Origin: a virus
Strand: one strand, 5' to 3'
Length of the DNA stretch: 64,000 bases
Virus record (IMG/VR): IMGVR_UViG_3300027741_000040
Span: 1 to 64,000 of that record
The translations under genes were made by a program, and so were the position numbers. Positions within the stretch are counted from its first letter, which is position 1; every line of letters begins with the position of its first letter. The notes beneath the pieces were generated by a model. It made no database searches. It saw only the letters and a program-made list of their open reading frames with translations, and was not told the origin of the DNA. Positions 15,638 to 31,234 of the stretch are shown in pieces.

Positions 15638-18600
15638 ATGACAGCAGCATTCAATTTAACAGCTCAATTGAATTTGAAAGGCCCAAGTAATATTGGGTCT
15701 ATAACATCGTCTATAAAAAAACAACTTGGTACAATTACTGCTAATGTTGACGTTAAGGTTAATGCTACCTCAATACAAAAAATTAGTCAGCTTAATGCTG
15801 GATTACAACAACTTAACAAGACATTATCGGCAACAACAGTTAGTGCAACATCTGCTGCCTCTGCTATTAAAGGATTAGGTCAGGCTTTTGGTGCTGTTAA
15901 TTTGAGTAGTTTGCCACAACAAATTTCAGCCACTTCAACAGCCCTAGGTCAAGTAAAGGGCCAGTCCGCTCAAGCTGCTAAAGCACTAGCTGCTTCAACT
16001 ACACAGATGGAAGAATTTGGCAAACAATCAGCATTAGCTGTTAGAAGATTTGCTGCTTTTAGTATTGTTACATCTAGTATTTATGCTTTAAATAATAGTA
16101 TAAATAGAGGTATAGAAGCTTTTATCGAATATGATCAGCAGTTTGTCAAACTGCAACAGGTTACAGGACAATCAGCAGATGGTCTAAAGTCCCTATCTAA
16201 AGAAATTACAACATTATCTGTAGGACTTGGTGTGAGTAGTGCTGCTTTAACAGATGTTGCTAGTACTTTAGCTCAGGCTGGTTTAAGTGCTCAAGACACA
16301 GAGAAAGCACTTAAAGCACTAGCCTTAAGTTCATTAGCTCCATCATTTGATAGTATGAATGAGACTGTAGAGGGCAGCATTGCAATAATGAGACAATTTG
16401 GTATTAGTGCTGGTGGTCTTGAAGGAGCATTAGGATCTATAAATACCGTTGCTGCTAAGTTTGCTGTTGAAGCTAGAGACATAATTACTGCTGTTCAGCG
16501 TACCGGTGGTGTGTTTGCTACGGCCAGTAAAGGAGTTACTGAAGGTACAGATGCTCTTAATGAATTTGTTGCTGTTTTTACAAGTATCAGAGCAACAACT
16601 CGTGAAAGCGCTGAAACTATTGCTACTGGTTTAAGAACAATTTTTACTAGAATTCAAAGAGGATCAACAATAGATGCCTTAAAGGAATTTGGAGTAAATC
16701 TACAAGATACTGAAGGAAAATTTGTTGGAGCCTATAAGGCCGTGGAACTATTAAGTAAAGGACTAAGTAGTCTCGATCCTAGAGATGCTAAGTTCTCAAA
16801 AATTGTAGAAGAGCTTGGCGGCTTCAGACAGATAGGTAAGGTTATTCCTCTTATTCAACAGTTTTCCGTTGCTCAAAATGCTTTAAAGGTCGCACAACAA
16901 GGACAAGGATCATTAGCAAAAGACGCAGCAACCGCACAACTGTCTTTAGCAAATCAAATTCAAAAAGTTAGACAAGAATTCTTGGCGCTATTTAGAGAGA
17001 TGGGACAAAGCCAAGGGTTTCAGGTTATGGTCAAAGCAACCTTATCATTAGCCAGTGGTCTTATTAAGGTTGTTAATGCTAGTAAGGGACTGCTTCCTCT
17101 TTTGGGCGTAATGTTAGCATTTAAGGGAGCTAGTGCCATAACTCAATTTGCTAGCGGTTTTGGCCAAGGACTAAAACCAGGAGCGGGCAAAAAAGACAGA
17201 GAAAAACCATTGTTCTCTCAAGGTGGTCCCGTAAGAGCCTTTGCTACCGGTGGCGTTGTACCAGGAAGCGGAGACGGAGACACTGTTCCCGCAATGTTAA
17301 CTCCTGGAGAATTTGTTATTAAAAAGCAAGCTGTTAAAGCTATTGGAGCTAATAAATTACATAGTATAAATAGATATGCTACTGGTGGTAAAGTTAAAGA
17401 TTTAGTTAATGATCCTAATGGTAAAAAATCTCTTAAAAAAGTCTATGATATAAATCAAGATTTTGATAGTTATGAAGATCCTACAATAGATAGAGTAGAC
17501 TTGGACAAAACATATGATCAGTATACACAACAATCTAAACAGATTTGGTTAGAAGCTAATAAAAAATACAAACAAGATTTAGCCGAAGGATACAAGCCCC
17601 AAAAAGGAGATATCCCCAAATTAGCAAATGCATATATAAAAAGAGAAACTGGTGGACTAGCTCAGAATCTTGGATTCAAAGAACTAAGAGAGCCTCAGAC
17701 AGCTAAAAAATTAAATAAAATTCGTGGAGCTTTAGCTGAAAATGAAGTTAAGAAAAGATATAAATTAGGAAATCCTCTCGCTTTACAAGATGGGGCTGAT
17801 TTTTATGATGCTAAAAATGAAAGATTCGTAGAAATCAAAAACCAGAAAAAACAATTAAAAGATTCTACTCTGATATCAAAAACATTACTAGCATTCGCTG
17901 CGAGAAAAGGTAACAAGTTAAATAATCAACCAGATCATGTTCCTAGTTTAAAAATTCTTGCTGTTGAAGCTCCAAGTCCAGATAAATACGATGAATTTGA
18001 AGAAAAAAAACTTGGTGGAGTAATTAATAAAAGAGCTGTGCGAGCTGTTGAATCTAAAACTTTTAAGAACATGAATCAATATGCTGGAGGTGGAGCAGTA
18101 GTAGTTAGAGATAGAGCAAACACAGATGACACCACAAAGCTAGATGAAGGTCTAGGCCAAATGGTGAATCAAGCATCTAGACAGTTTGGTAAAAAGGGAG
18201 CTCCTAAATTTATAAATGCCAAAGACATGCCAGGGTATCAAGCTATCAAAGGACATGTATTTGAAGAAGGATTGCGAATAGCTGGAGCATCGGCAGCAGA
18301 TAGTGCTGCTAATGCAGATTTTGATTATAATCCATGGTCTGGTAATAAGTCTTTTAGTAAACTTCCAGTATCAAAAACACCAATTGTAGACGCAAAAGCA
18401 TCTCTAGGTTCGGCCAGTAAAGCAGAGTTTATTAAAAAAATTAGTAATTTTAGACAGAAGAATCCAAACGATAATACCACAAATTTCGGCGCGGCAATAT
18501 TTGAAAATGAAAATGAAAAAGGAGGAGATCCAGAAGATATAAAGATTTCTGCAAAAGAAATAGCAGCATACGGCCAAAGTAAAAATAGTGGTGGTTTGAT

Positions 18601-21600
18601 CCAAAGATTTATTGATGGTGGCTGGGTTAAAAGAATGCAGCAGCAGTCACCAAAAGACCTTAACAAGGAACTGGATTTACTCGATTCTACATTAGACTTA
18701 TTTGGTTTTCAAAGAAAGGTTCCAATTAGCACATTTAGTAAATCGGCACCTTTTATGGAAGATGCGGGAATCAAAGAAGTTAGAGAAAGAATATCTGCCA
18801 TCAAAGAGTTTCTAGCTAGTAAAGAACCACAAAAAAAGAAAAAGACTGAGAAAGAAATAACTTTACCCAAAGCTCCATCTGGCATTTCTGATTATCTTAG
18901 GTCTTTAATTGAAAAAAATAAAATATATGATATAACAAACCAGTATGATGGTATTGTTAATCAAGCACTAAATGCAGCATATAAGGGAAATTTGGGACCA
19001 GGAAATAAACAACAGAATATGGATAAGGTTGGACCAAAAAGTATGGTTCGTTTCGCTCCGGACAGAGAATATATTGATGTATCTTTGGGTTCACTAGAAA
19101 AAGACATTCAATATATTGATAAAGTTAAAAAACTAAAGGGAGAAGATTCCGAAAGACTAGCTGCTAACAAAGGCTATACCGTTAGCGATATGTTAGATAC
19201 CGTTAGGGCATATCAGGCGATAGGTTTAGATGCAGCTATTAATACTGCTCTTGGCAGGAAAGATGACTTGAGTCAGTCATTAGCCGATACGTCAGATTTG
19301 AATAAAACAGAGAGGAAAAAGCTTGGTCCAGCAGTAGATCAGCCACTATCTTATTTTGTTGGATCATTAGATGCCGCCATGCAATTTTCATTACCAGAAA
19401 AATTATATAGTGGTATAGGAGCTAGTAAACAAAAACTATTTATAGAATCAGCTGGCGTAAAAATTAATAAACTAGAAGATACCAAAAAACTAGTTGGAAA
19501 AACTGTTAGCATACCTTCTTTCTTATCTACTTCAGAAGTACTAGATACAGCAGAAAGCTTTGTAAGAACAGGCATGATGACCATAGAAACAAATAAAAAA
19601 GCCAAAGGATTAAATCCAGAGAGAGCCAAGACAGATACGATTAACAGAGATAAATCAAAAATAAGAAAAATGGACCAGAGGCTCATTAGCGATTCTTTTG
19701 TCAAAGGCAAAGCCGATGAAAGTTTTGCTGACGATTATGATATCGAATCAGAATATATTCTACCAAGAAATTCTAAATTTAAAGTAAAAAACATAGAAGC
19801 TAAGGACAACAGTGAAGAAGGCGGAAATATTCTTGAATCGCTCAATATGGATTGGGCTGTAAAAATGTTAAATCGTGGAGGGAAAGTACAAAAATTTGTA
19901 GACGGTGGAGTAGCTCAACGAAAAGTTGGATATATTGATTATGATGTTATAGCTAATGAAACTAATAAAGATATTGTAGAAAAAGGCATGGAAGCAACTG
20001 GGCAAAAGGGTCCTAGACTATATACAGATTACCTAACGCAGCTTGCTGTTAGAGCACGAAAAGATAATAGTTTACAAAAACTAAGAGCAATATACGGAGT
20101 AGCTGGTAGTGGTAAAACAACACTAGCACGAGGTCAAGGAACAGACAATGCTACATTGCGCAAAACCGACAGATTTCCAGTACTATCTCCAGAAGATATT
20201 CAAAAAGCTACCGAAATATTAATACTAACTAGTAGCGTAAGTCAAACTAAAATGGATGATTTTTTTAGTGATGTTGATAGAGCATATACATTAAGTTCGA
20301 CTACTGACGCAGAAAGACAGGGAGTAAGGAGTAGAAAAGAATCAAGAGACATTACAGGTATTGGTTTAGAGAATCGCAAACCCGGAACTACTATGGGAGT
20401 TTCAACAGATAGTGCTGTTGGCGAAGCATTATTATCAGATAAGCTAGGATCAAAATCTACAGTATTAGGACGAAGTGATTCTGGCAGACTAAGAAGAAAG
20501 AGAGGAAATGAATTAGTAGACATTATCAAGAAGAGAATTGGTTTCACATGGGGTGGTTTTTCTCCCATGACAGCCGGTCATGAAAGCATCATGGAAGCAG
20601 CATCGGCTATGGGTATTCCTCCAGAAGATTTTATATATTTGGTTGGAGCAAATGAAGGAATTACTGATGATAAGGCATCAAGTTTCCGTACTGCAATTTT
20701 TGATCAGGATGCGAGAGTATTATTAGCTAAAGCTGGGGCTGGAGCAAAAGGAGCGACAGTATTACCAAAACCAAGAGACTTTGAAGTTCCACAAGCTTTT
20801 GATATTTCGCCGGAAAGTGGTCGTAGAAAAGTATTAATACCAGGAAAGGGTAGTACAGCATTTGTAGCAGATAAAACAGCAAAAGATTTAGAAAAATATA
20901 CATCTGCAGGATATAGCACAGTCAATTTGGAAAGATATGGCGGGATCAGCGGTACCATGGTTAGAGATTTAATAGCAGAAGGAAATCTTGGAGAATTACA
21001 GAAAATATTAAGCCCAGGAGTATATGATTTAATTTCTAATAATATTGGTAGGATCCAAAATAGAGCTAAAATTCTTCCAACAATAGTAGCAGATGTACAA
21101 AAAAGTCAGACTGTTAAACTCAAAGATGTAGAATCTGAAATTAAAGCAATTGGTATCAGTAGAATAGACCAAAAGAAAATGGACGATCCAGAATATGCAG
21201 CAAAAGCAGAAATATTATTGGATCTTAGAGAAAAGAAAAAGAAGATCCAAACTGCCGGATCTTTTGAACCATACAAATTATTAGATGCTTTAGCCCAAAA
21301 AGACCCTCAAAACTACGCCCTAGATTTCTCTTCACCAACAACTATGGCTAATGTTCCAGATATGAGAGTTATGGGACAAGGCCCACAAGCTCCTGAAGCT
21401 CCTATGCCAGTTGGTAGAGTTGCTCAATTAGCTCAAGAAAAAAATAAAAGTATTCAAGATGTTATACTAGAACAACTAGGAGGTTTGGGTGGTCCTGCTG
21501 GGGTTAAGAAAATACTTGGTATCGGTAGTGGAGATAGAACACTAAGCTCATTATTGCAAGCAGGAAATATTAAAGGTGGCAAAGGCTTAGAACAAGCAGC

Positions 21601-24600
21601 AGACTATGTTAATAGAGCATTAGCGGCTAGGGGAATAAGAGATGCTGCCGAAGCTAAAAGATTAGAAGAATATCAAGCTAAGGCTCTTCATTTTGGTATT
21701 GCCGGATTATTACCAATGGATTACTCAAAAGAATTTGAGTGGGATATTGGTGGTACTAGTGTTTACGCTACTGCTAGAGGTTTTGGTAGCGCATATTTGG
21801 AAGAAGCAAGACAAATGCAGAATGAGTCTTCAGCATTAGCTCAAAGATTTGCAGAAAATATACAAAATAAAAATATCTTTGGCGGTGGTGAAAGACTAGC
21901 TTTTGATTTCGATAAAACTTTAGTTGAGGATGCAGATATTCTCGATGCTAAGGGCAACCCTGATATTAAAAAATATGCAAATAGAGATGCTGTACAGCAG
22001 GCTCTCCAGAACGCAAGACCAACCAGACTAGCAGTTAAATTAAAATCTCTAATAGAACAAGATCCTCCATTTATTAAGAAAACCAGAATACTAACAGCTA
22101 GACCACAAAGCACAGCAGACCTTCTTGCTCAATCATTACAAAGTTTTGGTCTACCATATTCTGAACAAGATATTACAGGAGTTAGTGGTGGAGCTAGCAG
22201 CAATATTGCGGTATTAAAAGCTGCTAATTTACAACAAGAAGAAAAACTTATTGATGATAATTTAGAAAATATTATGGCTGTTCGCAAAGCTGGAAAAAAA
22301 GGTTTTCAGTACATAGAACCCAAGCCTACAACATCAGAATTAGATGAGAAAATGGGCCAGGGTAATATTGAGGGCGCCGTAGTAGAAAAAGCTTTGGCTG
22401 TATTAGGTGCTCCTGTAAGACCAAATGCTAAACAGAATAGAGCTATAGACTATCCTGATGGCTTAGGCAGTGCTGCCCAATTCTTTCCTGGTATTGATCC
22501 TGGTATTCCAACGGAAGTTAAAAGAACAATTGATGGTAGTAGTTTAGAAAAAGTTAGAGAAGAAATTGGAAGATATATAACAGGGGGAGCCGAAGCTGTT
22601 AAACTAGCTAGGGGAGGAGCTGTTCAAAGCTTTATGGCTGGTGGTAGGGCAGCTCCTCAGTCTCCGCCTAGAAAGTTTGCTGATGGCGGGTTAGTTCCAG
22701 GAATAGGTAATCAAGATACTGTTCCAGCAACTCTTAATGTTGGTGACTTTGTTATTAGAAAAAAAGCAGTAGAAACGATTGGGGTTTCTAAATTAGCAGG
22801 AATGTCAAGATATGCTAGTGGAGGTTCTGTAGATAAGGTTCCTGCTTTATTAACTCCTGGAGAGTTTGTTTTTAATAGACAGTCTGCACAGAAAATAGGA
22901 TATAATAAATTACATCAATTAAATCATGCTGATAAAATAGCGGGATATAATAATGGAGGAATGGTAGGAGGAGTTCAAGGATATGCTTCTGGAGGCGCTG
23001 TTACCATCAATAGCGCAATAGAAGATCTCATAACTTACCTTGCAAAAGGTATGAAGGCTACATCAGAAGCTAATCCTCCAAAACTAGTAGCTAGACCAGA
23101 TATTGTTGGTCGAGCAACTTTACAAGTTTCTGATAAAACAGTAGAGGTCATTAAAGCAATTAGTAAAGAACTTAACGATCTTGGTGTTAGTGTAAGTCAT
23201 GTTGCAGAATTAATGAAGATTGGTGGGGATATCAGCTATAAAGCCATGGAAAAGGCTATTAAAAAAGATATTGAAAGAATGACAATCGCTGGTGCCTCTA
23301 TCGAACAGCTTAGTAAAGCAGAAAGTACATTAGCAGTAGTTAGAACAGAAAGAATAGAAAATCTCAAGAAAACTCAAACATTAGAAGATAGTTTTAGAAA
23401 TTCTAGTATTGGTCAAAAATTTGGTTCGGGAGGAGCACAACAACAGATAATATCAGAATCTGACAGATTAGAAAAACTGATTGAAAATAAAAAGATAAAA
23501 GATATATCAAAAACATTAAATACTGGTCCTGGTGGTATGCTAGGAGCATCTTCGGAGGATATTAGAAAGAAAGCTACAGAGCTAGCGTCATCTCCGGAAG
23601 AGAAGGCTAAAACTAAACAATCGGCATATATTACGGCCGCAGCAAAAGTAACAGGAGTTAAAGTGTCTGATTTTAAATCTGCTGAGTTATCAGGAGCAGA
23701 TATTCAGAAATATATTGCTGAATCCATGAGAGATCGAAAAACTTTGGCAGATATGGACAAACAACTTATTGCTTTAAGAATGGAGGAATATAAGAACGTC
23801 AGTACTGTTAGAGGAATTTCTGTAAATTCAGCAAAAGAAGCAAGAGCACTAGCCGATGAAGAAGTGTCACAAAGAAGAGGAATTATTGATGACTTAGCTA
23901 GCGCCCAAGGAGAAGAGGGTGTCGGACCATCAGGAATCTGGGATTTGGCGAATAGCGTGATTGTTAAAAAACTACAAGGACTTACTCCGAGCGATTATAT
24001 TAATGGAGGAGCAACTATTGCTGGTTTTATGAGTGGCAATGGAAATGCTATTGCTCAAAATTTCTATGATACCAGCGATCAAGGAAGAATAGGAGCAGCT
24101 AGAACAGGAGCCGCTATTTCTAGCGCCGGAACAATTGCTAGCACAGGCTTAGGAATAGCTGCTCAAAGTTTGGCTCTTGGTCCTATTGGTCCTGTTGTTG
24201 CTGGTATTGTGGCTGCTGGAACTGGTATTCTTGCTTTAACCGATAGTATTTATGATTTTACCGGATCACAAGAAGCTGCTGTTAAAGAAGTAGAGAAGTC
24301 TCTTAGAGCAACTGAAATTAATGCAGCAACCGCTAGTTTAGATGATGCTTTTAAGAAATTTGAAAATGATATGAGTAATATTGATCTTCAAGAAGCTCTT
24401 AATAATGCATTATCTAATTCTGTAATGGCTCAGGCCAAAGATACTAGTGCTAATATTGATCAAGCAAAAGAAGACTATGCTTATCAAAATAGAAGTTGGG
24501 GAGACCTATTAAACTTTGATTTAGGTGGCAGCGCTCAGATGGATGCTGTTGAATTAAAAGAAGTTAATAGGGTAGAAGCAGAACGTTTTGCTCCTTTGGC

Positions 24601-27600
24601 AGATAAGGCGTATAAACAAATTCAAAACGAAATTAATGGCAATGCTTCTATAGAACAAATTATGAGCAATGACAAATTGCGTGGCGCTAGAGCAGCTATT
24701 GCGATGAGTACACCTGAGGGTATTTCAGAATATACGGCACAAAAAGCAGCAGAAGAGAAAGCCACCGGAAAACCAATTACTGAAGACGCACGCCAAGCAA
24801 TAATTGATGAAATAGCTGCTCGAAAAATTTCTACTAATGAATTTATCATATCATCAATCAAGGCTAAAGAAGTTGCTGATGCATTAGAGATGGCAAATTT
24901 GGCAGGACGAAAATTGGCACAAAGTTTTCAGAGACTATATGACAGTATTGATCAGGCTATTAATAAAAATAATTTTAATATTCAACAGAGAAAGACAAGT
25001 ACTGATTATTCTACTGGTGCCCTATCGGGAAATGCAGTTACTCCAGAACTTAATTCAAAAAATATTAATATACTAGATAATCCAAAAGCATATTCTACAA
25101 AAGAATTTAATAGTGCTATTAATGTTGCTTCTCAGTCATTACCAGCAGAAGACGCAGCAATGATAAAAGGTGCTGCTACATTACAAAGAAATTTAGCACC
25201 AGCCATAGAAGCAGAACTTAGAAAAACTTTGAGAACAGACGCTGGACTAACAGCAGAAGACGCAGCAAAACAAGCAAAAGAAATAGGAACAGCACAGGTT
25301 AAAGCCAAAGGTCTCCCTGTAGAAATGGAAGAAGCTATAATTAATCAACTTAATGCTTCTATAGATGCTAAAGTACAAGACGATAAGGTACAAAATGAAT
25401 TCAAAAACAGCCCTCAAGCTGCCACAGACAAATTTATTGAGAGTATTAGAGAAGCATCAGATACTATTATCGAAAATGCTGGTAAGGGAGGTATTGATAC
25501 ACTTAAGAAGTTGCTATCTTCTAGACAAGATATTTTTAATGATTTTGGGAAGAATTTAGCCAAATCCTCCGCTTTCCTTAAGCAGCATGCAGAATCTCTT
25601 GTTAAAGCTAAAAATATTATTGGTGATGCTAAGATGAATCTTAGAGAAGCATTAACTGGTGTTGGTGAGACTTTTGCTGAAGCTAAAGCCCGTTTTGATT
25701 CGGAAATATCTGATCTTACTGGGGGAATAACTGATCCTAAAGCGATCCGCGCAAATATACAAAATCTAGAGAAAAAAGGGGCAGCTCTTGTAGAACAAAG
25801 AAAGAATACTGATGATGAAGCTGCTATTGCAAAATTTACCACAGAAATTAATAAAACTAATGATGCTATTAACAATAATAGAGAAGGACTAGAAAGATTA
25901 GCTAATAGTTCTGAATTGGCAGCAAAAGCACTAGGTGAAGTTACTAAGATTAGAGATCTACAAAAAAATAGATCCGAAGTAGTTAACAAATTATTAACAC
26001 AAACTCCAGAAGAAGCCCAAAAGCTCAATGACACGTTTGTTAGACTGCAGAATAATTTAAGTGGAGGATTAAATACAGGAGCTAATTCTAGAGCGGCCAG
26101 AGAAGCTTTTAGTCAGGCTTTGCGAAGTGGAAGTTCATTACAAGGAGCATATCGAGCAGGAAATAGTGTTCTTGCACAACAGAGGCAAGAAACATTAGCA
26201 ATGTTCCAAGATCCCAATATTAGGGGTGCTCAAAAACTAGAGATGAAAAATCAGGCTATTCGACAAAACAAAACCTTATCAGACGAGCAGATAGAGGATA
26301 TATTAAATCAGCAAGAAGCCCAGCTAAAAACACAAATGGCCATAGAAACAGGACAAATCAATAATCCTATGGTTAGGGCAGATATTGAAGCAACCAAAAA
26401 TAGAAAATTTGATCCAGCCGCTGCACAAGCTGCTGACGAATATAATAAAATCACTAACAGACAGGCTAATGCTAATACTGAAATTGGAGGACTAGCATTA
26501 GTACAAAGTAGGCTAGTTAAATCTAACGATGAACTGAAAATAGCACTAGAGGGATTGACGTTAGAGATTCAAAATGCCAGAGGATTTGATGCCAAGGTAG
26601 AGGGCGGGAAAATGGGCGCTGCCGCTGCCGTAGCTGCCGGAAAAGGAGCTACTGTTGGAGCATCTCCTGCCGGAGGAAATGGTCCAAGGACCGTATACGC
26701 TAGCACGGGAGCTTTAATTAATTTTGAGCCAAAAGGAACAGATACTGTTCCTGCAATGTTGACTCCTGGCGAATTTGTTATTAATGCTAGATCAACAGCT
26801 GAACATCTTCCATTATTACAGGCTATTAATAATAGCAGGGGTGGGAGTATTGATGGATTTTCTAATGGTGGAATAGTTTATGCCCAAAAAGGGATACTGG
26901 TGCCAACGAAGAGAGAAACATCCCTTTCTGCTGATTATACCAGACTGTCTCGGGTTCAGCAGGGCAATATTACCGTGCGAGGAGATGAGTTAACAAGAGG
27001 ATCATATCGCGCTACCCTCGACCCTAGCGTTGTTATTCATCGAGCCATCAGTCCTGTTGGCGCTCCGGGGTATGATGGCAGTTCGTCTTCTGATGCTGTG
27101 CGCAATCCGGGCACTCCGTCGAGAACACAGGCGAAGGAACAAGCAAAAGCGAAGGACGCTGGTTACAATGCTATGGCTGAACGAATTCGTGCGGCACGTT
27201 CAACCGGCATAGGAGATGCTCCTAAAGTGTCATCGCTCGCACAACAAATGATGTATCTCCCAAACGGCAAGGTTAGACCTGTCCCAAGCAGAGAGATGCT
27301 TGACAAGTGGTCAGACATCGACGCACAGGCTGGCAGGAAGCGGCAGGACGGTGGTCATATTGCCGTACCGCCAGCTACACAGCCAGCGCCAGCCAAAGAT
27401 GCTGCTCAAACTCGACAAGCAGCACCCAACTCAAACAAAACTATGCAAAAGCCCATTCAGTGGGGTGGGTTTGGTTTCGGTTCTACACCGACGCCTGCTC
27501 CTGTCGGCGGTGAGTCACAGGTAGACAAGGCTATTAAACTGTTGCGGGCATTGAATCTGGGTGGAGACGCAAGTAAAAAAGAGTCTCAGGCTACAGACGA

Positions 27601-30600
27601 AGGTCAAAGAGAGCCAAAAACTAAGACCTCAGGATCAAAAGTAAAAAAATCTGAACAAACCTTCTTTGGTGGCACTCCATCGCAGATGGCTTCTCCTAAA
27701 TTTTCATTACCTTGGTTGTCTGCTGGTTCTAATTTTCCAAAACCGCGTAATATGGCTGAAATACAAATGTACAAAGAAGGCTTGTCTCGTGGTATGACAA
27801 TCCAACAGGTAAGAGACGAAAGAATACAAGCTTATAGATCAAGATTTCCATCAAGGAAAAATAATAGACAAACACAGAACTCTCAGGCTCCTTTTGGTAA
27901 TCTTAGTATATTTGGTTTTTCTGGTCTCTCCACCCTAAGTGGAGGAGAAGCAACATCAAAACCCAGCTATGACACTACTAGAACCAATAGTCCTCTTCTT
28001 CGTCCTCCAAAAGAACAAGCTAAAGTAATAAAAGAAGAAGCTAAACAGGCTCAAGAGCCATTAGCAGCAGCGCCCTCATTACCAGTAGCAGCAGCGCCCT
28101 CATTACCAGTAGCAGCAGCGCCCTCATTACCAGTAGCAGCAGCGCCCTCATTACCAGTAGCAGCAGCGCCCTCATTACCAGTAGCAGCTGGTTTAGACAG
28201 AGAAAAACAAAGAAATTTAGATCTAGCATATGAAAATATGGCCGAAAGAAGTAGGGCAAAGATTTTAGAGACCATAGGCCAAGAAGGAGCTTGGGATGTT
28301 AATGCTTATGATACTGCCTACCGCAGATTAATGAGATCTGGAACACCAACAAAAGAAAGATGGACGACAGAACAATTTAGACAAGCGGTTGAAAAAGAAT
28401 TATCTGGAATGTCTCCGGAATATGCTCGTAGACAATGGAAAGGAGTTACCCCATCTACCCACTATACTCAAAGTCCAGAATATAAGGCTAAACAGGAAAA
28501 AAAAGCCAAAGACAGAGAAGTTAAAGGACCATATGCTCCTGGATTACCTGGAGCAATAGACAAAGCTGCCGACCAGGTAATGACTGGAGTTGTATTACCT
28601 ATTACCGAAACTGTCGCTGGAGCTGCTACTGTTCTTAGATCTGGTAGTGGACCAGAGATGGACAAAAAATTAAAAGAAAACAGAGAAGCCTTAGGTGCTG
28701 ATGCTAGATTAGCTGAAGACGAAAAGAGAAAATTAATAGGAACAGATAAGAGTATTTTTGGAGGTAATGTTGGAGACAAGGTCTATTCTAAATTTTTACA
28801 GTTGCCTATTGGACAACAACAAGAATACCTAGATCTGAGAAAACGCGCTCAAACTAAAAAAGGACTTAGACAATCTGAAGCAGCTGATCTTAAAGAATAT
28901 ACTAGATTAGACTATTTTCAAAAAACTTTGGAAGTTCCATATCAGCAAAGAGAAAGAATTCCAACAGGTTATGAGTCTGACGTTAAAGACCCTGCGGCAA
29001 GCAAAAAATCATCCGATAAAATGACAGATATGAGAGATCTTCGTGCTGCTACTCCTTTATTAGGTAGTCGTAAGTATGTGGAAGGATTGCCAGCAGCTTT
29101 TGAAGAAGGAGCAACACTAGGAACAGTTTTGACTAAAGAATCTAGTGCTTATGGAGACAGAGCAACAGAAACAGTTGGTGGAACAGGACAAGTTGTTACC
29201 GGAACAGCCAAAGTAGGCTTTGGTTTAAGTGCGGCTGCATTAGCAGATAGAGTTGGTATGACCGGACTAGCATCTCCTAAGATAGTAAAAGCCTTGAAGG
29301 ATTCTTTTCTCGAAACAGCCAGATTAGGAGGTACTCAGGTTCAGTTAGGGGCATCAAAATATGGCAAAAATGCAGGTGTAGATTCAGCTTTAGCTATGGT
29401 TTATGGAGAAAGCTCTCCTCAAGCAACTTTTTATGCTGATCAACAAAAAGTTCAACAAAAACAATTTGATACTACTTTCCAAAAACAAAAAGCACAAGCC
29501 GAAGCTTTAGCTCCTGGATTCGGAACAAGCTACGAACGAGCAGAGAACTTATCTCAAGCAGCATATGGCGCAGCGACCACAGCGGCCATGCAACAGGTTG
29601 CTGTTGGGGCATTTACAAAACCTTCTATGTCTCCAGCAAAAACATTCACTCCAGCAGAAAATGCGGCTCGCTCCGGAACCAATCAAAAATTAAATGATGT
29701 ATTTACTGGAAAAAAACAGATAGTTCGCCCGTCGATAGATATAGAGCCAGAATTTAATAAGTTTTTAAAACGCCCAATTGTTGGAGAGCTCCCACCTCCA
29801 CAAGATATGGCACTAGATAGATTTTTAAAGCGCCCAATTATTGGAGAGCGTCCCTCTATTTCAAGTCCAGAACTAGATCAATTTTTGGGACGTACTGCAC
29901 AAACACCAGTAAATCCACAACTTCAAAACATACGATGGGCCATGCCGCGCAAGCCGGGATCGGCGGTATGGAACCAGCCATCCAAACCATCATCATGGAA
30001 TGGAGCTTCGCAGCCGTCACCAGGTCCTGTTACGAAACAATTGGAAAGGCTCCCACGAGTTCGGGCTGTCAAGAACTATACGAATAAGTATGGAAACCCA
30101 TCTGAAGATTCTGATTTAGTTATACGAAAACAATTAGACATATCACGACGTCAGAATGTCAGAAGGTTTATGAATGGGGAAAATGATGTTGGAGCTCCTA
30201 TTGATTCAACTCCTAGCGTTTCTTCAACAGGCACTACATTCCCTTCTGCTTCTCCAGCAGTATTCCCAAGGCCACAGATAGCAACACCTAGTGAGCCATT
30301 GTTTCCAACCCTTACAAAATGGGGTCGATCACTTAAAAGTTTAGCTGGTGGTATATGGAATATATCGACACCAGGGAATATTTTCTATACGGGTGGTAGC
30401 AGTGCTTCCCTTAGATATTTATTATCTGGAGGAGGTGAGCAGCAGGATAAACCACAGACAAAGAAAGTAAAGAGACCACAAAGAAAAGCAAATGTAGGTA
30501 TGATATCTACTGGATATACTGCTGAAGGAAAACTAGTCCCTTTATCCTTTGGTCCTACAGCTAAATATTCCACAGGAGGGATAGTATATGCAAATAACGG

Positions 30601-31234
30601 AGCACTAATAGAGACCCGTTCACAAGGAACAGACACCGTTCCCGCCATGTTAACTCCTGGTGAATTCGTTGTGAACAGAGCATCCGCACAAGAACATATG
30701 CCATTACTACAAGCTATTAATAATAGAAATTATGAAAGCGGCGGGTTAGTAAAGTATATGGCTCAGGGAGGTGTTGTTACTCCTCAATATAAGGATGTAG
30801 GAGGAGCTATCGGCAGCTTAGCATCCTCAAGTATTTTGGGTGCTGGACTAGACATGGGAGCGATTAGCGAACTAGCAAAAGAATTACCAAGACTCAAACA
30901 AGCATTTGGGTCATTTGAGAAATTATCAGAATTTACACAAAGTTTTGATAAACTTACACAAAATATGGGTACTAATTTAACCGGATTTGCGGAAACAGTA
31001 GCCAATATGCCAAGACAGATGGAGCACTCTCTAAAAGCTATTGTTAATGGCACTATTAATAGCAATATTCCTGGTGCTACCACTCAAATAGTTAATAGTA
31101 GACATGAGGCTCAAATAGTTTATGACCAAAATAATCAAAGACTAGACAGAGCCAGCGAAGGGGCTTTTTCACGATCAGATCCAGCAATCATGAGAGGAAC
31201 AAGTGGTGCCGGAGGCACTCGTTCTAATGCATAA
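15638..31234 (+). CDS. Giant tape measure protein (5198 aa) with embedded enzymatic cargo domains
   Basis: N-terminal TP901-type TMP core (FIEYDQQFVKLQQVTG...LAQAGLS...ETIATGLRTIFTRI...EELGGFRQ), long helical A/E/K-rich regions, and hydrophobic segments near 17030-17165 and 24090-24245. AGGA RBS; canonical position after the chaperone-like genes. Confidence 0.9.
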   Translation: MTAAFNLTAQLNLKGPSNIGSITSSIKKQLGTITANVDVKVNATSIQKISQLNAGLQQLNKTLSATTVSATSAASAIKGLGQAFGAVNLSSLPQQISATSTALGQVKGQSAQAAKALAASTTQMEEFGKQSALAVRRFAAFSIVTSSIYALNNSINRGIEAFIEYDQQFVKLQQVTGQSADGLKSLSKEITTLSVGLGVSSAALTDVASTLAQAGLSAQDTEKALKALALSSLAPSFDSMNETVEGSIAIMRQFGISAGGLEGALGSINTVAAKFAVEARDIITAVQRTGGVFATASKGVTEGTDALNEFVAVFTSIRATTRESAETIATGLRTIFTRIQRGSTIDALKEFGVNLQDTEGKFVGAYKAVELLSKGLSSLDPRDAKFSKIVEELGGFRQIGKVIPLIQQFSVAQNALKVAQQGQGSLAKDAATAQLSLANQIQKVRQEFLALFREMGQSQGFQVMVKATLSLASGLIKVVNASKGLLPLLGVMLAFKGASAITQFASGFGQGLKPGAGKKDREKPLFSQGGPVRAFATGGVVPGSGDGDTVPAMLTPGEFVIKKQAVKAIGANKLHSINRYATGGKVKDLVNDPNGKKSLKKVYDINQDFDSYEDPTIDRVDLDKTYDQYTQQSKQIWLEANKKYKQDLAEGYKPQKGDIPKLANAYIKRETGGLAQNLGFKELREPQTAKKLNKIRGALAENEVKKRYKLGNPLALQDGADFYDAKNERFVEIKNQKKQLKDSTLISKTLLAFAARKGNKLNNQPDHVPSLKILAVEAPSPDKYDEFEEKKLGGVINKRAVRAVESKTFKNMNQYAGGGAVVVRDRANTDDTTKLDEGLGQMVNQASRQFGKKGAPKFINAKDMPGYQAIKGHVFEEGLRIAGASAADSAANADFDYNPWSGNKSFSKLPVSKTPIVDAKASLGSASKAEFIKKISNFRQKNPNDNTTNFGAAIFENENEKGGDPEDIKISAKEIAAYGQSKNSGGLIQRFIDGGWVKRMQQQSPKDLNKELDLLDSTLDLFGFQRKVPISTFSKSAPFMEDAGIKEVRERISAIKEFLASKEPQKKKKTEKEITLPKAPSGISDYLRSLIEKNKIYDITNQYDGIVNQALNAAYKGNLGPGNKQQNMDKVGPKSMVRFAPDREYIDVSLGSLEKDIQYIDKVKKLKGEDSERLAANKGYTVSDMLDTVRAYQAIGLDAAINTALGRKDDLSQSLADTSDLNKTERKKLGPAVDQPLSYFVGSLDAAMQFSLPEKLYSGIGASKQKLFIESAGVKINKLEDTKKLVGKTVSIPSFLSTSEVLDTAESFVRTGMMTIETNKKAKGLNPERAKTDTINRDKSKIRKMDQRLISDSFVKGKADESFADDYDIESEYILPRNSKFKVKNIEAKDNSEEGGNILESLNMDWAVKMLNRGGKVQKFVDGGVAQRKVGYIDYDVIANETNKDIVEKGMEATGQKGPRLYTDYLTQLAVRARKDNSLQKLRAIYGVAGSGKTTLARGQGTDNATLRKTDRFPVLSPEDIQKATEILILTSSVSQTKMDDFFSDVDRAYTLSSTTDAERQGVRSRKESRDITGIGLENRKPGTTMGVSTDSAVGEALLSDKLGSKSTVLGRSDSGRLRRKRGNELVDIIKKRIGFTWGGFSPMTAGHESIMEAASAMGIPPEDFIYLVGANEGITDDKASSFRTAIFDQDARVLLAKAGAGAKGATVLPKPRDFEVPQAFDISPESGRRKVLIPGKGSTAFVADKTAKDLEKYTSAGYSTVNLERYGGISGTMVRDLIAEGNLGELQKILSPGVYDLISNNIGRIQNRAKILPTIVADVQKSQTVKLKDVESEIKAIGISRIDQKKMDDPEYAAKAEILLDLREKKKKIQTAGSFEPYKLLDALAQKDPQNYALDFSSPTTMANVPDMRVMGQGPQAPEAPMPVGRVAQLAQEKNKSIQDVILEQLGGLGGPAGVKKILGIGSGDRTLSSLLQAGNIKGGKGLEQAADYVNRALAARGIRDAAEAKRLEEYQAKALHFGIAGLLPMDYSKEFEWDIGGTSVYATARGFGSAYLEEARQMQNESSALAQRFAENIQNKNIFGGGERLAFDFDKTLVEDADILDAKGNPDIKKYANRDAVQQALQNARPTRLAVKLKSLIEQDPPFIKKTRILTARPQSTADLLAQSLQSFGLPYSEQDITGVSGGASSNIAVLKAANLQQEEKLIDDNLENIMAVRKAGKKGFQYIEPKPTTSELDEKMGQGNIEGAVVEKALAVLGAPVRPNAKQNRAIDYPDGLGSAAQFFPGIDPGIPTEVKRTIDGSSLEKVREEIGRYITGGAEAVKLARGGAVQSFMAGGRAAPQSPPRKFADGGLVPGIGNQDTVPATLNVGDFVIRKKAVETIGVSKLAGMSRYASGGSVDKVPALLTPGEFVFNRQSAQKIGYNKLHQLNHADKIAGYNNGGMVGGVQGYASGGAVTINSAIEDLITYLAKGMKATSEANPPKLVARPDIVGRATLQVSDKTVEVIKAISKELNDLGVSVSHVAELMKIGGDISYKAMEKAIKKDIERMTIAGASIEQLSKAESTLAVVRTERIENLKKTQTLEDSFRNSSIGQKFGSGGAQQQIISESDRLEKLIENKKIKDISKTLNTGPGGMLGASSEDIRKKATELASSPEEKAKTKQSAYITAAAKVTGVKVSDFKSAELSGADIQKYIAESMRDRKTLADMDKQLIALRMEEYKNVSTVRGISVNSAKEARALADEEVSQRRGIIDDLASAQGEEGVGPSGIWDLANSVIVKKLQGLTPSDYINGGATIAGFMSGNGNAIAQNFYDTSDQGRIGAARTGAAISSAGTIASTGLGIAAQSLALGPIGPVVAGIVAAGTGILALTDSIYDFTGSQEAAVKEVEKSLRATEINAATASLDDAFKKFENDMSNIDLQEALNNALSNSVMAQAKDTSANIDQAKEDYAYQNRSWGDLLNFDLGGSAQMDAVELKEVNRVEAERFAPLADKAYKQIQNEINGNASIEQIMSNDKLRGARAAIAMSTPEGISEYTAQKAAEEKATGKPITEDARQAIIDEIAARKISTNEFIISSIKAKEVADALEMANLAGRKLAQSFQRLYDSIDQAINKNNFNIQQRKTSTDYSTGALSGNAVTPELNSKNINILDNPKAYSTKEFNSAINVASQSLPAEDAAMIKGAATLQRNLAPAIEAELRKTLRTDAGLTAEDAAKQAKEIGTAQVKAKGLPVEMEEAIINQLNASIDAKVQDDKVQNEFKNSPQAATDKFIESIREASDTIIENAGKGGIDTLKKLLSSRQDIFNDFGKNLAKSSAFLKQHAESLVKAKNIIGDAKMNLREALTGVGETFAEAKARFDSEISDLTGGITDPKAIRANIQNLEKKGAALVEQRKNTDDEAAIAKFTTEINKTNDAINNNREGLERLANSSELAAKALGEVTKIRDLQKNRSEVVNKLLTQTPEEAQKLNDTFVRLQNNLSGGLNTGANSRAAREAFSQALRSGSSLQGAYRAGNSVLAQQRQETLAMFQDPNIRGAQKLEMKNQAIRQNKTLSDEQIEDILNQQEAQLKTQMAIETGQINNPMVRADIEATKNRKFDPAAAQAADEYNKITNRQANANTEIGGLALVQSRLVKSNDELKIALEGLTLEIQNARGFDAKVEGGKMGAAAAVAAGKGATVGASPAGGNGPRTVYASTGALINFEPKGTDTVPAMLTPGEFVINARSTAEHLPLLQAINNSRGGSIDGFSNGGIVYAQKGILVPTKRETSLSADYTRLSRVQQGNITVRGDELTRGSYRATLDPSVVIHRAISPVGAPGYDGSSSSDAVRNPGTPSRTQAKEQAKAKDAGYNAMAERIRAARSTGIGDAPKVSSLAQQMMYLPNGKVRPVPSREMLDKWSDIDAQAGRKRQDGGHIAVPPATQPAPAKDAAQTRQAAPNSNKTMQKPIQWGGFGFGSTPTPAPVGGESQVDKAIKLLRALNLGGDASKKESQATDEGQREPKTKTSGSKVKKSEQTFFGGTPSQMASPKFSLPWLSAGSNFPKPRNMAEIQMYKEGLSRGMTIQQVRDERIQAYRSRFPSRKNNRQTQNSQAPFGNLSIFGFSGLSTLSGGEATSKPSYDTTRTNSPLLRPPKEQAKVIKEEAKQAQEPLAAAPSLPVAAAPSLPVAAAPSLPVAAAPSLPVAAAPSLPVAAGLDREKQRNLDLAYENMAERSRAKILETIGQEGAWDVNAYDTAYRRLMRSGTPTKERWTTEQFRQAVEKELSGMSPEYARRQWKGVTPSTHYTQSPEYKAKQEKKAKDREVKGPYAPGLPGAIDKAADQVMTGVVLPITETVAGAATVLRSGSGPEMDKKLKENREALGADARLAEDEKRKLIGTDKSIFGGNVGDKVYSKFLQLPIGQQQEYLDLRKRAQTKKGLRQSEAADLKEYTRLDYFQKTLEVPYQQRERIPTGYESDVKDPAASKKSSDKMTDMRDLRAATPLLGSRKYVEGLPAAFEEGATLGTVLTKESSAYGDRATETVGGTGQVVTGTAKVGFGLSAAALADRVGMTGLASPKIVKALKDSFLETARLGGTQVQLGASKYGKNAGVDSALAMVYGESSPQATFYADQQKVQQKQFDTTFQKQKAQAEALAPGFGTSYERAENLSQAAYGAATTAAMQQVAVGAFTKPSMSPAKTFTPAENAARSGTNQKLNDVFTGKKQIVRPSIDIEPEFNKFLKRPIVGELPPPQDMALDRFLKRPIIGERPSISSPELDQFLGRTAQTPVNPQLQNIRWAMPRKPGSAVWNQPSKPSSWNGASQPSPGPVTKQLERLPRVRAVKNYTNKYGNPSEDSDLVIRKQLDISRRQNVRRFMNGENDVGAPIDSTPSVSSTGTTFPSASPAVFPRPQIATPSEPLFPTLTKWGRSLKSLAGGIWNISTPGNIFYTGGSSASLRYLLSGGGEQQDKPQTKKVKRPQRKANVGMISTGYTAEGKLVPLSFGPTAKYSTGGIVYANNGALIETRSQGTDTVPAMLTPGEFVVNRASAQEHMPLLQAINNRNYESGGLVKYMAQGGVVTPQYKDVGGAIGSLASSSILGAGLDMGAISELAKELPRLKQAFGSFEKLSEFTQSFDKLTQNMGTNLTGFAETVANMPRQMEHSLKAIVNGTINSNIPGATTQIVNSRHEAQIVYDQNNQRLDRASEGAFSRSDPAIMRGTSGAGGTRSNA
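17396..18004 (+). other. TMP domain: PD-(D/E)xK nuclease-like domain 1
   Basis: GALAENEV...DGADFYD...FVEIKN fits the E...D...ExK restriction-endonuclease-fold pattern. Confidence 0.55.
18095..18580 (+). other. TMP domain: PD-(D/E)xK nuclease-like domain 2
   Basis: KGHVFEEGL...ADFDY...IVDAKAS. Confidence 0.55.
19190..19860 (+). other. TMP domain: VIP2/Alt-like mono-ADP-ribosyltransferase
   Basis: VRAYQ...AINTAL, LYSG (normally LYRG), SFLSTS and ESEYILPRNSKFKV (ExE motif). Confidence 0.8.
20070..20500 (+). other. TMP domain: P-loop NTPase/kinase-like
   Basis: Walker A motif AIYGVAGSGKTTLAR at about 20087-20130. Confidence 0.7.
20530..21060 (+). other. TMP domain: HIGH-superfamily nucleotidyltransferase (CTP_transf_like; NadD/CoaD-type)
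   Basis: IGFTWGGFSPMTAGH (T/HxGH motif) and C-terminal ISGTMVRDLI...LSPGVYDLI (ISxTxxR motif). Confidence 0.8.
21890..22315 (+). other. TMP domain: HAD-superfamily phosphatase
   Basis: Motif I LAFDFDKTL, motif II ILTAR, motif III K, motif IV LIDDN. Confidence 0.8.
22350..22600 (+). other. TMP domain: PD-(D/E)xK nuclease-like domain 3
   Basis: IEGAVVEKAL...AIDYP...PTEVKRT. Confidence 0.5.
28062..28188 (+). repeat. Perfect 24-bp coding tandem repeat, about 5.3 copies (AAAPSLPV)
   Basis: GCAGCAGCGCCCTCATTACCAGTA repeated 5 times identically from 28064. Confidence 0.95.
29746..29895 (+). repeat. Degenerate 60-bp coding repeat, about 2.5 copies (FLKRPIxGE)
   Basis: EFNKFLKRPIVGELP / ALDRFLKRPIIGERP / ELDQFLGR at a 20-aa period. 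Confidence 0.8.

Follow-up and report, generated by a model that had tools for sequence, protein, structure and literature searches.

Kinase-adenylyltransferase and phosphatase modules embedded in a predicted giant tape measure protein encoded by an uncultured aquatic phage

Known phage enzymes related to the cargo

In Thermus phage P23-45 the tape measure protein, gp96, has 5,002 aa and includes a virion RNA polymerase as a fused part (PMC10770324). This polymerase is N-terminal to a membrane segment, occurs in virions within the full-length protein, acts in the cytoplasm and has been proposed to be active during DNA entry (PMC10770324). In polyvalent proteins, one virion-associated polypeptide holds numerous enzyme domains of unrelated kinds, among them ARTs; the prediction is that it is injected to take part in the early conflict with the host (Iyer et al. 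2017, PMC5512222). In that survey, tape measure proteins had 0 occurrences, the kinases were of the Ser/Thr/Tyr type and the nucleotidyltransferases of the Pol-beta type (PMC5512222). The NARP3 enzyme Bas30_86 (PDB 9x6f/9x6h) is a proven phage counter-defence in which a kinase and an NMNAT rebuild NAD+ (PMC13464706).

The locus described here lies in a window of 64,000 nucleotides (positions 1 to 64,000 of IMG/VR record IMGVR_UViG_3300027741_000040), to which all coordinates refer. Like gp96, it appears to encode a giant tape measure protein with enzyme cargo N-terminal to a hydrophobic segment. However, gp96 carries one RNA polymerase and its delivery is proven, whereas here we find a series of interchangeable enzymes for small molecules or nucleic acids, the delivery of which we infer. 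The locus shares with polyvalent proteins the union of unrelated enzyme domains, an ART among them, in one polypeptide, the virion link coming here from the tape measure (TMP) domain. Across 150 relatives, the order of ART, KIN-NT (kinase and adenylyltransferase), HAD and additional modules varies. Unlike the polyvalent set of Iyer et al., the modules are a P-loop kinase plus HIGH transferase and a HAD phosphatase. Bas30_86 is a separate protein made after infection, while its counterpart here, module A, is embedded in the tape measure protein. No published description of this cassette was found in the literature.

The host reading frame

The block at 19910-22603, bounded by LNRGGKVQKFVDGG immediately before its start and LARGGAVQSFMAGG immediately after its end, makes up residues 1425-2322, in frame, of a single 5,198-aa open reading frame. 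The features are as follows.

15638-31234, + strand: single host ORF, predicted cargo-carrying tape measure protein (PF10145 and tape-measure PHROGs)
19910-20518, + strand: KIN, P-loop kinase-like, block residues 1-203 (AlphaFold, mostly pLDDT 85-96; conservation)
20096-20119, + strand: Walker A GVAGSGKT of KIN
20519-21043, + strand: NT, predicted HIGH-superfamily adenylyltransferase domain, block residues 204-378 (structure matches; invariant motifs)
20564-20581, + strand: PMTAGH of NT
20945-20965, + strand: ISGTMVR of NT
21044-21325, + strand: CC, helical hairpin after NT, block residues 379-472 (helices 379-414, 427-451 and 453-464 in the model)
21326-21409, + strand: disordered P/Q/A-rich linker of 28 aa between modules A and B (pLDDT 28-32; dN/dS 0.39-0.46)
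21410-21682, + strand: B1n, helical N-terminal part of module B (helices 8-96 in the module B model)
21683-21880, + strand: B1c, three-strand beta-meander and long helix, first half of the HAD-interrupted domain (strands 98-129, helix 132-162 in the model)
21881-22321, + strand: predicted HAD phosphatase (VIA and Foldseek matches; invariant motifs)
21905-21919, + strand: DFDKT of HAD
22094-22102, + strand: TAR of HAD
22217, + strand: K of HAD
22253-22258, + strand: DD of HAD
22322-22594, + strand: B3, small alpha/beta piece, second half of the interrupted domain (conservation; recurs after many cargo modules)
22385, 22448 and 22514-22522, + strand: E..D..EVK of B3

PF10145 (PhageMin_Tail) matches the host ORF at residues 189-393 (E 3.8e-21, 76 bits against a cut-off of 33.2), and the tape measure families phrog_28 and phrog_4211 match it at about 1e-18. 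On this sequence evidence the ORF is assigned to the tail tape measure proteins, of giant size and siphovirus type, of an uncultured aquatic phage. The sole strongly hydrophobic segment, residues 2840-2872, lies C-terminal to the cargo, which is the arrangement of gp96 with its N-terminal virion RNA polymerase.

Two modules rather than one unit

The first-pass annotation had suggested that some 900 aa may act as one unit, since they contain no GG doublet. It is correct that no GGx7GG doublet occurs within the block. The idea of a single unit fails because a 28-aa disordered linker splits it and because, in relatives, the two parts stand apart, in reversed order or separated by GG. The homologues of the block, 155 among 1.84 billion representatives and most with E < 1e-30, are nearly all proteins of 2,000-7,300 aa and split into those covering block residues 1-490 and those covering 500-890. 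In 150 representatives, about 60 carry module A without HAD, 55 carry (B1-)HAD-B3 without module A and about 20 carry both. At the linker site relatives have other cargo or a GG doublet, the latter at 3 of 12 A-to-B junctions, and the module order is reversed in P0030, P0109, L033 and L041. The block is thus two separately shuffled modules, A (19910-21325) and B (21410-22594). The two do not belong to one pathway.

All domains of the block are under purifying selection, dN/dS being 0.04-0.25 in every domain as against 0.39-0.46 in the linker. The motif residues are retained in 25-33 of 25-33 aligned sequences, and the catalytic residues are invariant in aligned relatives down to about 25% identity. 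AlphaFold models of the two modules are compact, with pLDDT of 87 and 90. Together with the number of homologues, this places the motifs well beyond chance. Pfam and NCBIfam searches did not recognise the block domains. From sequence and models, both modules are predicted to be enzymes and are apparently active.

Module A: a kinase fused to an adenylyltransferase

KIN, NT and CC are inseparable in full-length relatives (about 90 protein clusters). Module A is therefore an obligate fusion in which a small P-loop kinase is followed by an adenylyltransferase of PPAT/NadD/NMNAT type and then by a helical hairpin.

In KIN the conserved residues are R4, G7, I9, D10, D12, the Walker A stretch G63..K69, D79, R84, R88, D96, R156, R195 and K197. 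Its sole structural match is the zeta toxin 6epg_B (Z 7.5, rmsd 4.3, 160 residues), which falls below the trust level of the tool and within the range of chance arrangements. Weaker leads point the same way, namely Zeta_toxin/AAA_33, language-model atlas scores of 0.79-0.80 and a zeta-domain protein of BFVD (E 0.01). KIN may thus be placed, weakly, as a P-loop kinase of zeta-toxin/PNK-like type. In one clade the Walker A residue G68 is changed to R.

NT has two invariant motifs, P219-x-T221-x-G223-H224 and I346-S-G-T349..R352, with T221-x-G-H224 found in 29 of 29 sequences and S347, T349 and R352 in 33 of 33. By VIA it matches PPAT (6ccq_A, Z 14.6, rmsd 2.4, 141 of 156 residues aligned), NadD (4s1o_B, Z 14.5) and archaeal NMNAT (1f9a, Z 13.3); NadR enzymes follow below PPAT and NadD (8x7f, Z 10.6; 6gye, Z 10.0). 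The best Foldseek matches are PPATs (3e-6), a PDB profile search returned 3gmi and 9x6f (the latter at E 0.024), and one relative (P0151) scores above the Pfam Citrate_ly_lig cut-off (24.1 bits; cut-off 20.9). Sequence and model together assign NT to the HIGH (cytidylyltransferase-like) nucleotidyltransferase superfamily and to its PPAT/NadD/NMNAT clade, not to the unrelated sugar-nucleotide transferases that the first-pass annotation had kept in view. A PPAT/CoaD feature, the PPAT fold with TxGH, is present. PPAT, NadD and NMNAT tie, so that the acceptors of all three are candidates for NT, and the first-pass annotation was right that motifs do not reveal the substrate.

Among cultured phages, NT comes closest in sequence to the uncharacterised 'cytitidyltransferase' family known from T4-like cyanophages and Asteriusvirus jumbo phages (members include P-SSM2 PSSM2_194, S-H9-2 gp082 and PBECO4 AGC34827), which is present in 546 phage records. 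It aligns with NT over the whole domain (hhalign 89.8%, E 1.8e-6, 153 columns), and both have the start TWG-x-F-x-P-x-(T/H)-x-GH and the end S-x-(S/T)-x-x-R. Because T and H alternate at the TxGH position of this family, TxGH is not discriminating. Unlike NT, the cyanophage protein is free-standing or has other extensions, lacks a P-loop kinase and lies outside a tape measure protein. Its neighbours vary: in S-H9-2 it stands beside a ligase-like gene that carries a KxDG motif, in P-TIM68 and PBECO4 beside methylases, and elsewhere beside ribonucleotide reductase.

Module B: a phosphatase within an interrupted domain

The HAD motifs (module B numbering) are D171-x-D173-x-T175, T-A-R236, K275 and D287-D288, all invariant in 17-18 sequences, and they correspond to the DxDxT, (S/T)xR, K and DD motifs of T4 Pnkp (1ltq, 5uj0). 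The top VIA match is the 3'-phosphatase of T4 Pnkp (5uj0_B, Z 11.4, rmsd 3.5, 126 of 142 residues aligned), followed by Pnkp1 (4xrp, Z 10.7), T4 Pnkp again (1ltq, Z 10.6) and AphA (1z5g_D, Z 10.2). Structure comparison therefore finds a Pnkp-type HAD 3'-phosphatase domain with AphA close behind, AphA-type nucleotidases being within about 1 Z of Pnkp; Foldseek matches AphA at 1e-4.

The flanks of HAD belong together. In HAD-less relatives B1c abuts B3 directly, and the region before B3 of other relatives matches B1c (hhalign, P 4.7e-4). HAD is read as the insert because such HAD-less B1c-B3 units exist. The LGGLGG within B1n is no linker but a turn, conserved at G32 (12/12) and G36 (11/12). B3 has the residue set of a PD-(D/E)xK nuclease (E, D, (D/E)xK), its conserved positions being E331 (20/21), D352 (20/20), (D/E)374, K376 (21/21) and R377. 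No sequence or fold match was obtained for B3, the PDB profile search with it being empty and the fold-search lists being filled by HAD. The model gives B3 one strand and a bridge and B1c a three-strand meander; the core fold that defines PD-(D/E)xK enzymes is alpha-beta-beta-beta-alpha-beta. On the modelled structure, module B is thus a predicted HAD phosphatase of the Pnkp/AphA type inserted into a small E..D..(D/E)xK domain.

The domain calls of the first-pass annotation were right at superfamily level (P-loop kinase, HIGH nucleotidyltransferase, DxDxT HAD). All four motif sets that it listed are found and conserved; for the nuclease-like part the support extends to the motif and not to the fold.

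Alternative readings

The annotation had likened kinase and transferase to the NadR domain pair. In its fullest form this means that all four domains salvage NAD+ as a unit (NR to NMN to NAD+), feeding the ART or countering NAD-depleting defences, which we find distinctly unlikely. NT does match NMNAT and NadD (Z 13.3-14.5), the PDB profile search did reach the NadR-like NARP3 enzyme 9x6f (E 0.024), with which module A shares transferase motifs and the presence of P-loop kinase and HIGH adenylyltransferase in one chain, and NARP3 is a precedent for phages rebuilding NAD+. An ART stands directly upstream here and in 6 other clusters, and HAD resembles AphA and also e(P4), both of which hydrolyse NMN; an NMN phosphatase, however, would work against synthesis. 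The order KIN-NT is opposite to that of NadR (transferase first, kinase second) in every relative, NadR scores Z 10.0-10.6 as against 14.5 for PPAT/NadD, the profile comparisons gave KIN no RNK signal beyond the P-loop, and the HAD module is independently distributed. NadR structures align with module A through the transferase domain only, and hhalign against E. coli NadR gave 11% probability. PnuC (PF04973) was absent, and NadV was not found, in the phage's own record (66% complete) and three complete related phage genomes; control genomes gave PnuC matches. The RNA ligases Rnl2 and RtcB (PF09414, PF01139) were absent from the same four genomes; the Rnl1 profile (PF09511) was silent in its control. 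On these searches the phage genes complete neither NAD salvage nor RNA repair. The latter bears on the other suggested pairing, a T4 Pnkp-like end-healing kit that would protect or repair the incoming genome or host tRNA that has been cut: the kinase would act on 5'-OH and HAD on the 3' phosphate, NT would adenylylate the 5'-phosphate and the E..D..ExK domain would bind or cut nucleic acid. It is favoured by the HAD matches to T4 Pnkp (Z 11.4) and to Pnkp1, which belongs to an RNA repair complex (Z 10.7), by the weak KIN leads within the PNK/zeta clan and by the ligase-like and methylase neighbours of the cyanophage family. Yet in T4 Pnkp kinase and phosphatase are direct fusion partners, whereas here the kinase is always fused to NT and never to HAD, which sits in the other, independent module with NT, CC and B1 in between. 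Of about 150 clusters only about 20 have both kinase and HAD, and the scores of AphA-type nucleotidases come so near to Pnkp (about 1 Z) as to be a tie. We know of no HIGH-family enzyme that adenylylates polynucleotide ends, and we regard an end-healing kit as unlikely.

Module A might instead be a toxin that shuts off the host in the manner of zeta or AvrRxo1, its kinase phosphorylating a nucleotide-linked metabolite (a UDP-sugar, NAD+ or dephospho-CoA) made or held by NT, so that a host pool would be drained or poisoned as infection begins. KIN has, after all, no structural neighbour other than the zeta toxin 6epg_B, which reportedly phosphorylates UDP-sugars; AvrRxo1 is reportedly an injected zeta-like kinase whose product is 3'-NADP, and in CoA synthase and PAPS synthase the product of the transferase is phosphorylated at its 3'-OH by the kinase. 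However, a Z of 7.5 is no higher than chance arrangements can reach, the language-model leads reach just 0.79-0.80, and poisoning a host needed for phage replication requires a rationale, which leaves this reading with a rather small probability. That the domains are decayed passengers, now serving as mere tape measure length or packing material, is very improbable: one clade carries an altered Walker A and the domains go unrecognised by Pfam and NCBIfam, but the catalytic residues are invariant to about 25% identity, dN/dS is 0.04-0.25 as against about 0.4 in the linker, and the models are confident and compact.

A model for delivery and function

The account that we consider fairly probable is that of cargo internal to the tape measure protein: two independently shuffled enzyme modules, delivered by the virion, of which A would combine a kinase with AMP transfer and B would be a phosphatase. 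Judging from its TMP domain, the cargo polypeptide is probably associated with the virion. The enzymes would travel inside the virion as a segment of the tape measure protein and pass into the cell when it is infected, before the DNA or together with it, a proposal made because of the parallel to P23-45 gp96, the proven case. They would then act before the expression of any phage gene. Folded enzymes within the tail lumen pose a packing problem, which is a point against virion cargo.

To our knowledge, every known pair of P-loop kinase and HIGH transferase (NadR, CoA synthase, PAPS synthase) couples phosphorylation with AMP transfer. Module A most likely does the same on one small nucleotide-type substrate. 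A NAD-type dinucleotide is the leading guess for its product, though a tentative one, and a CoA-type or other ADP-linked product is the next guess. As to the suggested feeding of the ART, the adjacency is real, the ART being immediately upstream of KIN in 7 of the 10 clusters that have both, this protein included; it amounts to a soft hint of a NAD link. Module B would strip a phosphate from a nucleotide or from the 3' end of a nucleic acid, the nucleic-acid end being a serious candidate with somewhat less than an even chance.

Position of the block in a giant tape measure protein

The kinase, nucleotidyltransferase and phosphatase block lies in frame within a single open reading frame, the N-terminus of which is that of a tail tape measure protein (PF10145, E 3.8e-21; tape-measure PHROGs, ~1e-18). 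The source IMG/VR virus record is 95.8 kb long, with a completeness estimate of 66%. The relevant features are:

15638-31234 (+), tape measure ORF, 5,198 codons
19910-22603 (+), enzyme block, ORF residues 1425-2322, with linker LNRGGKVQKFVDGG immediately before it and LARGGAVQSFMAGG immediately after it
19910-20518 (+), small P-loop kinase domain (KIN), block residues 1-203
20519-21043 (+), HIGH-superfamily transferase (NT), block residues 204-378
21044-21325 (+), helical hairpin (CC), block residues 379-472, closing module A
21326-21409 (+), linker between modules A and B
21410-22594 (+), module B: B1 (B1n and B1c), HAD phosphatase (21881-22321) and B3
24155-24250 (+), hydrophobic segment, ORF residues 2840-2872

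All the motifs named in the first-pass annotation are present where it had placed them. No GGx7GG doublet occurs within the block, and neither an Rfam family nor a tandem repeat was found in the region. Minus-strand ORFs in the region were rejected as genes, being short chance frames. Only one stretch of the 5,198 amino acids is strongly hydrophobic, the glycine-rich segment at residues 2840-2872. All enzyme cargo precedes it, and it is probably where the tape measure inserts into the membrane.

Two further giant ORFs downstream, at 31292-36745 (1,817 aa) and 37288-42477 (1,729 aa), encode proteins resembling those of tails or baseplates. The first has a match to a PHROG 'kinase' (residues 720-816, E 1.8e-7). 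PHROGs gave no match for most of the window's other structural ORFs.

Two separable enzyme modules

The first-pass annotation had read the block as unbroken, some 900 residues that might act as one unit. It is literally unbroken in this copy, but the homologues argue against a single unit. When 1.84 billion representatives were searched exhaustively with phmmer, 155 homologous proteins were recovered, 113 of them with E < 1e-30 and nearly all 2,000-7,300 residues long. Their matches form two classes, covering either block residues 1 to ~490 or ~500 to 890. When HMMs for six pieces (KIN, NT, CC, B1, HAD and B3) were run on 150 representatives, KIN, NT and CC proved inseparable in full-length proteins (~90 clusters). 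Some ~60 clusters have module A but no HAD, and 55 proteins have (B1-)HAD-B3 but no module A; the two share a protein in only ~20 cases. The order of the modules is reversed in homologues P0030, P0109, L033 and L041, and in another relative (L005) a GG doublet directly follows module A and leads into different cargo. Where B closely follows A, a GGx7GG doublet marks 3 of the 12 junctions. At the junction in the window lies a linker of 28 residues, rich in P, Q and A and predicted to be disordered (pLDDT ~30).

Two intact-looking enzyme modules under selection are embedded in the tape measure protein. Against three relatives, ~80% identical, dN/dS is 0.04-0.25 in every domain versus 0.39-0.46 in the linker. 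Relative to L002-L004, dS exceeds 1 in NT and CC (20519-21325) but is 0.3-0.8 in KIN (19910-20518) and module B; therefore, diverged alleles have recombined within module A too.

Pfam, NCBIfam and PHROGs gave only sub-threshold matches on the block, and phmmer against PDB sequences gave none. Pfam has no model for the kinase-transferase cassette. Neither the block nor module A matched any of 50,697 cultured-phage records by blastn and tblastn, and profile searching for free-standing homologues of module A returned contig fragments only. P0147, an apparent exception, was rejected: its start had been called inside a giant protein (compare L017).

The kinase-transferase module

The AlphaFold model of module A, built with 33 sequences, has a mean pLDDT of 87 and a pTM of 0.81. 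KIN conserves the Walker A motif (G63..K69), an N-terminal RxxGxIDxD strand, D79, R84, R88, D96, R156 and the RRK at 195-197. Its sole listed structural neighbour is the gonococcal zeta toxin (Z 7.5, rmsd 4.3, 160 residues), below the trust level of the tool. Weak matches in the language-model atlas (Zeta_toxin/AAA_33, scores 0.79-0.80) and in BFVD (a polynucleotide kinase and a zeta-domain protein, E 1e-3 to 1e-2) point weakly to the zeta-toxin clan.

A divergent clade (L017, L038-L041 and P0147; ~27% identity) carries GAAANRKS as its Walker A, with Arg replacing the second conserved Gly; the remaining conserved positions of kinase and transferase are unchanged. In P0122, within residues ~600-700, B3 and a GG lead directly into another kinase variant (GGVGIFDSD ... 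HGPAGSGKTT). A GG followed by the RxxGxIDxD kinase start is a recurrent junction.

The structural model places NT in the adenylyltransferase clade, apart from the sugar-nucleotide transferases that the first-pass annotation had named as the contrary outcome. In an all-against-representatives structural search, archaeal NMNAT, NadD and PPAT tied at Z 13.2-13.3 and outscored NadR (10.0-10.6), TmcAL (9.6) and glycerol-3-phosphate cytidylyltransferase (9.5). A second search, against all chains, gave PPAT at Z 14.6 (rmsd 2.4, 141/156 residues) and NadD at 14.5, a tie that does not tell the acceptor of NT. Foldseek puts PPATs on top (3e-6). Alignment of the NT profile with single E. coli sequences (hhalign: CoaD 37%, NadR 11%, NadD 1%) is too weak to discriminate. 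Residues P219, T221, G223, H224, S347, T349 and R352 are invariant and R260 and R269 nearly so. TxGH was rejected as a PPAT marker, since some members of the cyanophage family discussed below have T and others H at its first position. The hairpin CC always accompanies NT.

The phosphatase module

Module B is modelled with a pLDDT of 90. Within its own numbering, the HAD domain spans residues 163-309 and its four motifs are invariant (D171, D173, T175, R236, K275, D287 and D288). Its best structural match is the 3'-phosphatase of T4 Pnkp (Z 11.4, rmsd 3.5, 126/142 residues), followed by Pnkp1 of a bacterial RNA-repair complex (10.7), T4 Pnkp again (10.6) and AphA class B nucleotidases (10.2), with other HADs at 9.8 or less. 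Foldseek lists AphA first (1e-4). The domain is thus a phosphatase of the Pnkp/AphA group, acting on nucleotides or polynucleotides.

The 'nuclease-like' tail, B3, conserves E331, D352 and a (D/E)374-x-K376 pattern. In several relatives that lack HAD (L014, L015, L035, L019, P0122, P0036, P0040, P0132 and P0144), B1c, a beta-meander and helix, abuts B3, and about a dozen residues take the place of the 147-residue HAD of the window. Likewise, X in the common architecture KIN-NT-CC-X-B3 ends in 80 residues that can be aligned to B1c by hhalign (P 4.7e-4). B1c and B3 thus make up one recurrent small domain, into which HAD is inserted. A profile of the HAD-less B1c-B3 unit retrieved nothing below E 0.9 from PDB sequences, and the language-model atlas gave no usable match.

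The LGGLGG within B1 might have been a degenerate linker, but it is a conserved and confidently modelled turn, and that reading was rejected. Residues 864-898 of the window's own ORF product (window ~18227-18331) give a very weak, non-significant second match to the B3 HMM (E 0.035). This is an upstream E..D..DAK segment and fits the several restriction-endonuclease-like mini-domains remarked on in another note of the first-pass annotation.

NAD salvage or end healing?

Two precedents had been proposed for the block, the kinase and adenylyltransferase pair of NadR and the kinase and phosphatase pair of T4 Pnkp; as domain pairings, neither holds. The domain order is the reverse of that in NadR, the chains of which align via the transferase domain only and score below PPAT and NadD. 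As for T4 Pnkp, KIN never adjoins HAD and the two are inherited independently. A phage NAD system, NARP3, is proven and combines a NadR-like enzyme with a PnuC-type transporter (PMC13464706). Partner genes were sought in the window's own record and in three relatives of 197, 238 and 178 kb, all 100% complete by CheckV. PnuC and NAPRTase/NadV are absent from these four, as are the end-healing partners Rnl2 and RtcB; for Rnl1, the control itself was silent. Neither pathway gains support, yet both could still operate because host enzymes could fill the missing partner steps. A soft hint towards NAD comes from the neighbouring cargo: an ADP-ribosyltransferase (ART) like the one upstream in the window occurs with KIN in 10 clusters and in 7 of these sits directly N-terminal to it, at identities as low as 38%. 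Other proteins have an ART after B3.

Every known pair of P-loop kinase and HIGH transferase (NadR, animal CoA synthase, PAPS synthase) carries out two steps on a single small substrate. Module A may be expected, by this analogy, to phosphorylate and adenylylate a single nucleotide-type molecule. The leading guess, a doubtful one, is a substrate of the NAD type. Module B would most likely act on a nucleotide or nucleic-acid end, taking off its 3' or 5' phosphate.

Probable delivery at infection and its possible meaning

Virions are known to deliver T4 Alt, the RNA polymerases of N4 and crAss-like phages, and P23-45 gp96. The latter, from a Thermus phage, is a tape measure protein of 5,002 residues. 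An active virion RNA polymerase forms its N-terminal part and is found in virions within the full-length protein (PMC10770324). The gp96 cargo is N-terminal to the hydrophobic segment, the same layout as here, where 2840-2872 is the only such segment. Polyvalent virion proteins provide a general precedent, although their survey makes no mention of tape measure proteins and the kinase and nucleotidyltransferase types that it lists differ from these (PMC5512222). Because of gp96, the polyvalent proteins and the position of the cargo, we infer that both modules would be delivered into the host cell at infection. The block plausibly belongs among virion-delivered multi-enzyme proteins, and this biology is testable.

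It is conceivable, if unlikely, that the tape measure is a vehicle for a 'time-zero' enzyme, with module A rebuilding NAD+ or making another ADP-linked or 3'-phosphorylated dinucleotide in the cell before phage gene expression. Were this so, NAD-depleting abortive-infection systems would be pre-empted or the neighbouring injected ART supplied. As an enzyme of cofactor synthesis delivered by the virion, the module would then be without precedent, and it would represent a new clade of kinase and HIGH-transferase fusion with reversed domain order. More generally, active cargo would let these aquatic phages, with genomes of 95-240 kb, alter nucleic-acid ends or the nucleotide or cofactor chemistry of the host at injection, a moment hardly studied in the arms race between phages and host defences. 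The searchable literature yielded no description of a tape measure protein as a modular carrier of swappable small enzymes, and no paper describing the kinase-transferase cassette. The cassette is a clean target for biochemistry, and results would inform the 'cytitidyltransferase' of hundreds of cyanophages.

A related transferase of cyanophages

In cultured phages, the tblastn matches of NT are all very weak (E 1 to 8) and fall on this 'cytitidyltransferase' of T4-like cyanophages. Profile-profile comparison with four members gives 89.8% probability and E 1.8e-6 over 153 columns, the whole domain. The family extends to 546 phage records, Asteriusvirus jumbo coliphages included. A likeness in BFVD to ~590-aa cyanophage proteins (~370 columns, rmsd 17-25) was rejected as a shared two-domain architecture. 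The product of the corresponding 410-aa gene upstream in Synechococcus phage S-H9-2 resembles a ligase rather than a P-loop kinase; its motifs are KWDG (KxDG), EGYVA and VKLV, and the 'cytitidyltransferase' gene overlaps this upstream gene by 4 bases (L046:2769-4552).

The neighbours of the family lean slightly to nucleic-acid or nucleotide metabolism, a context that does not settle the substrate. DNA methylases adjoin the gene in P-TIM68 and PBECO4, and in P-SSM2 purine and ribonucleotide reductase genes and a tRNA ligase lie near it. Elsewhere among cyanophages, the transferase is extended at its N- and C-termini (424 and 401 aa) or comes after a DNA methylase.
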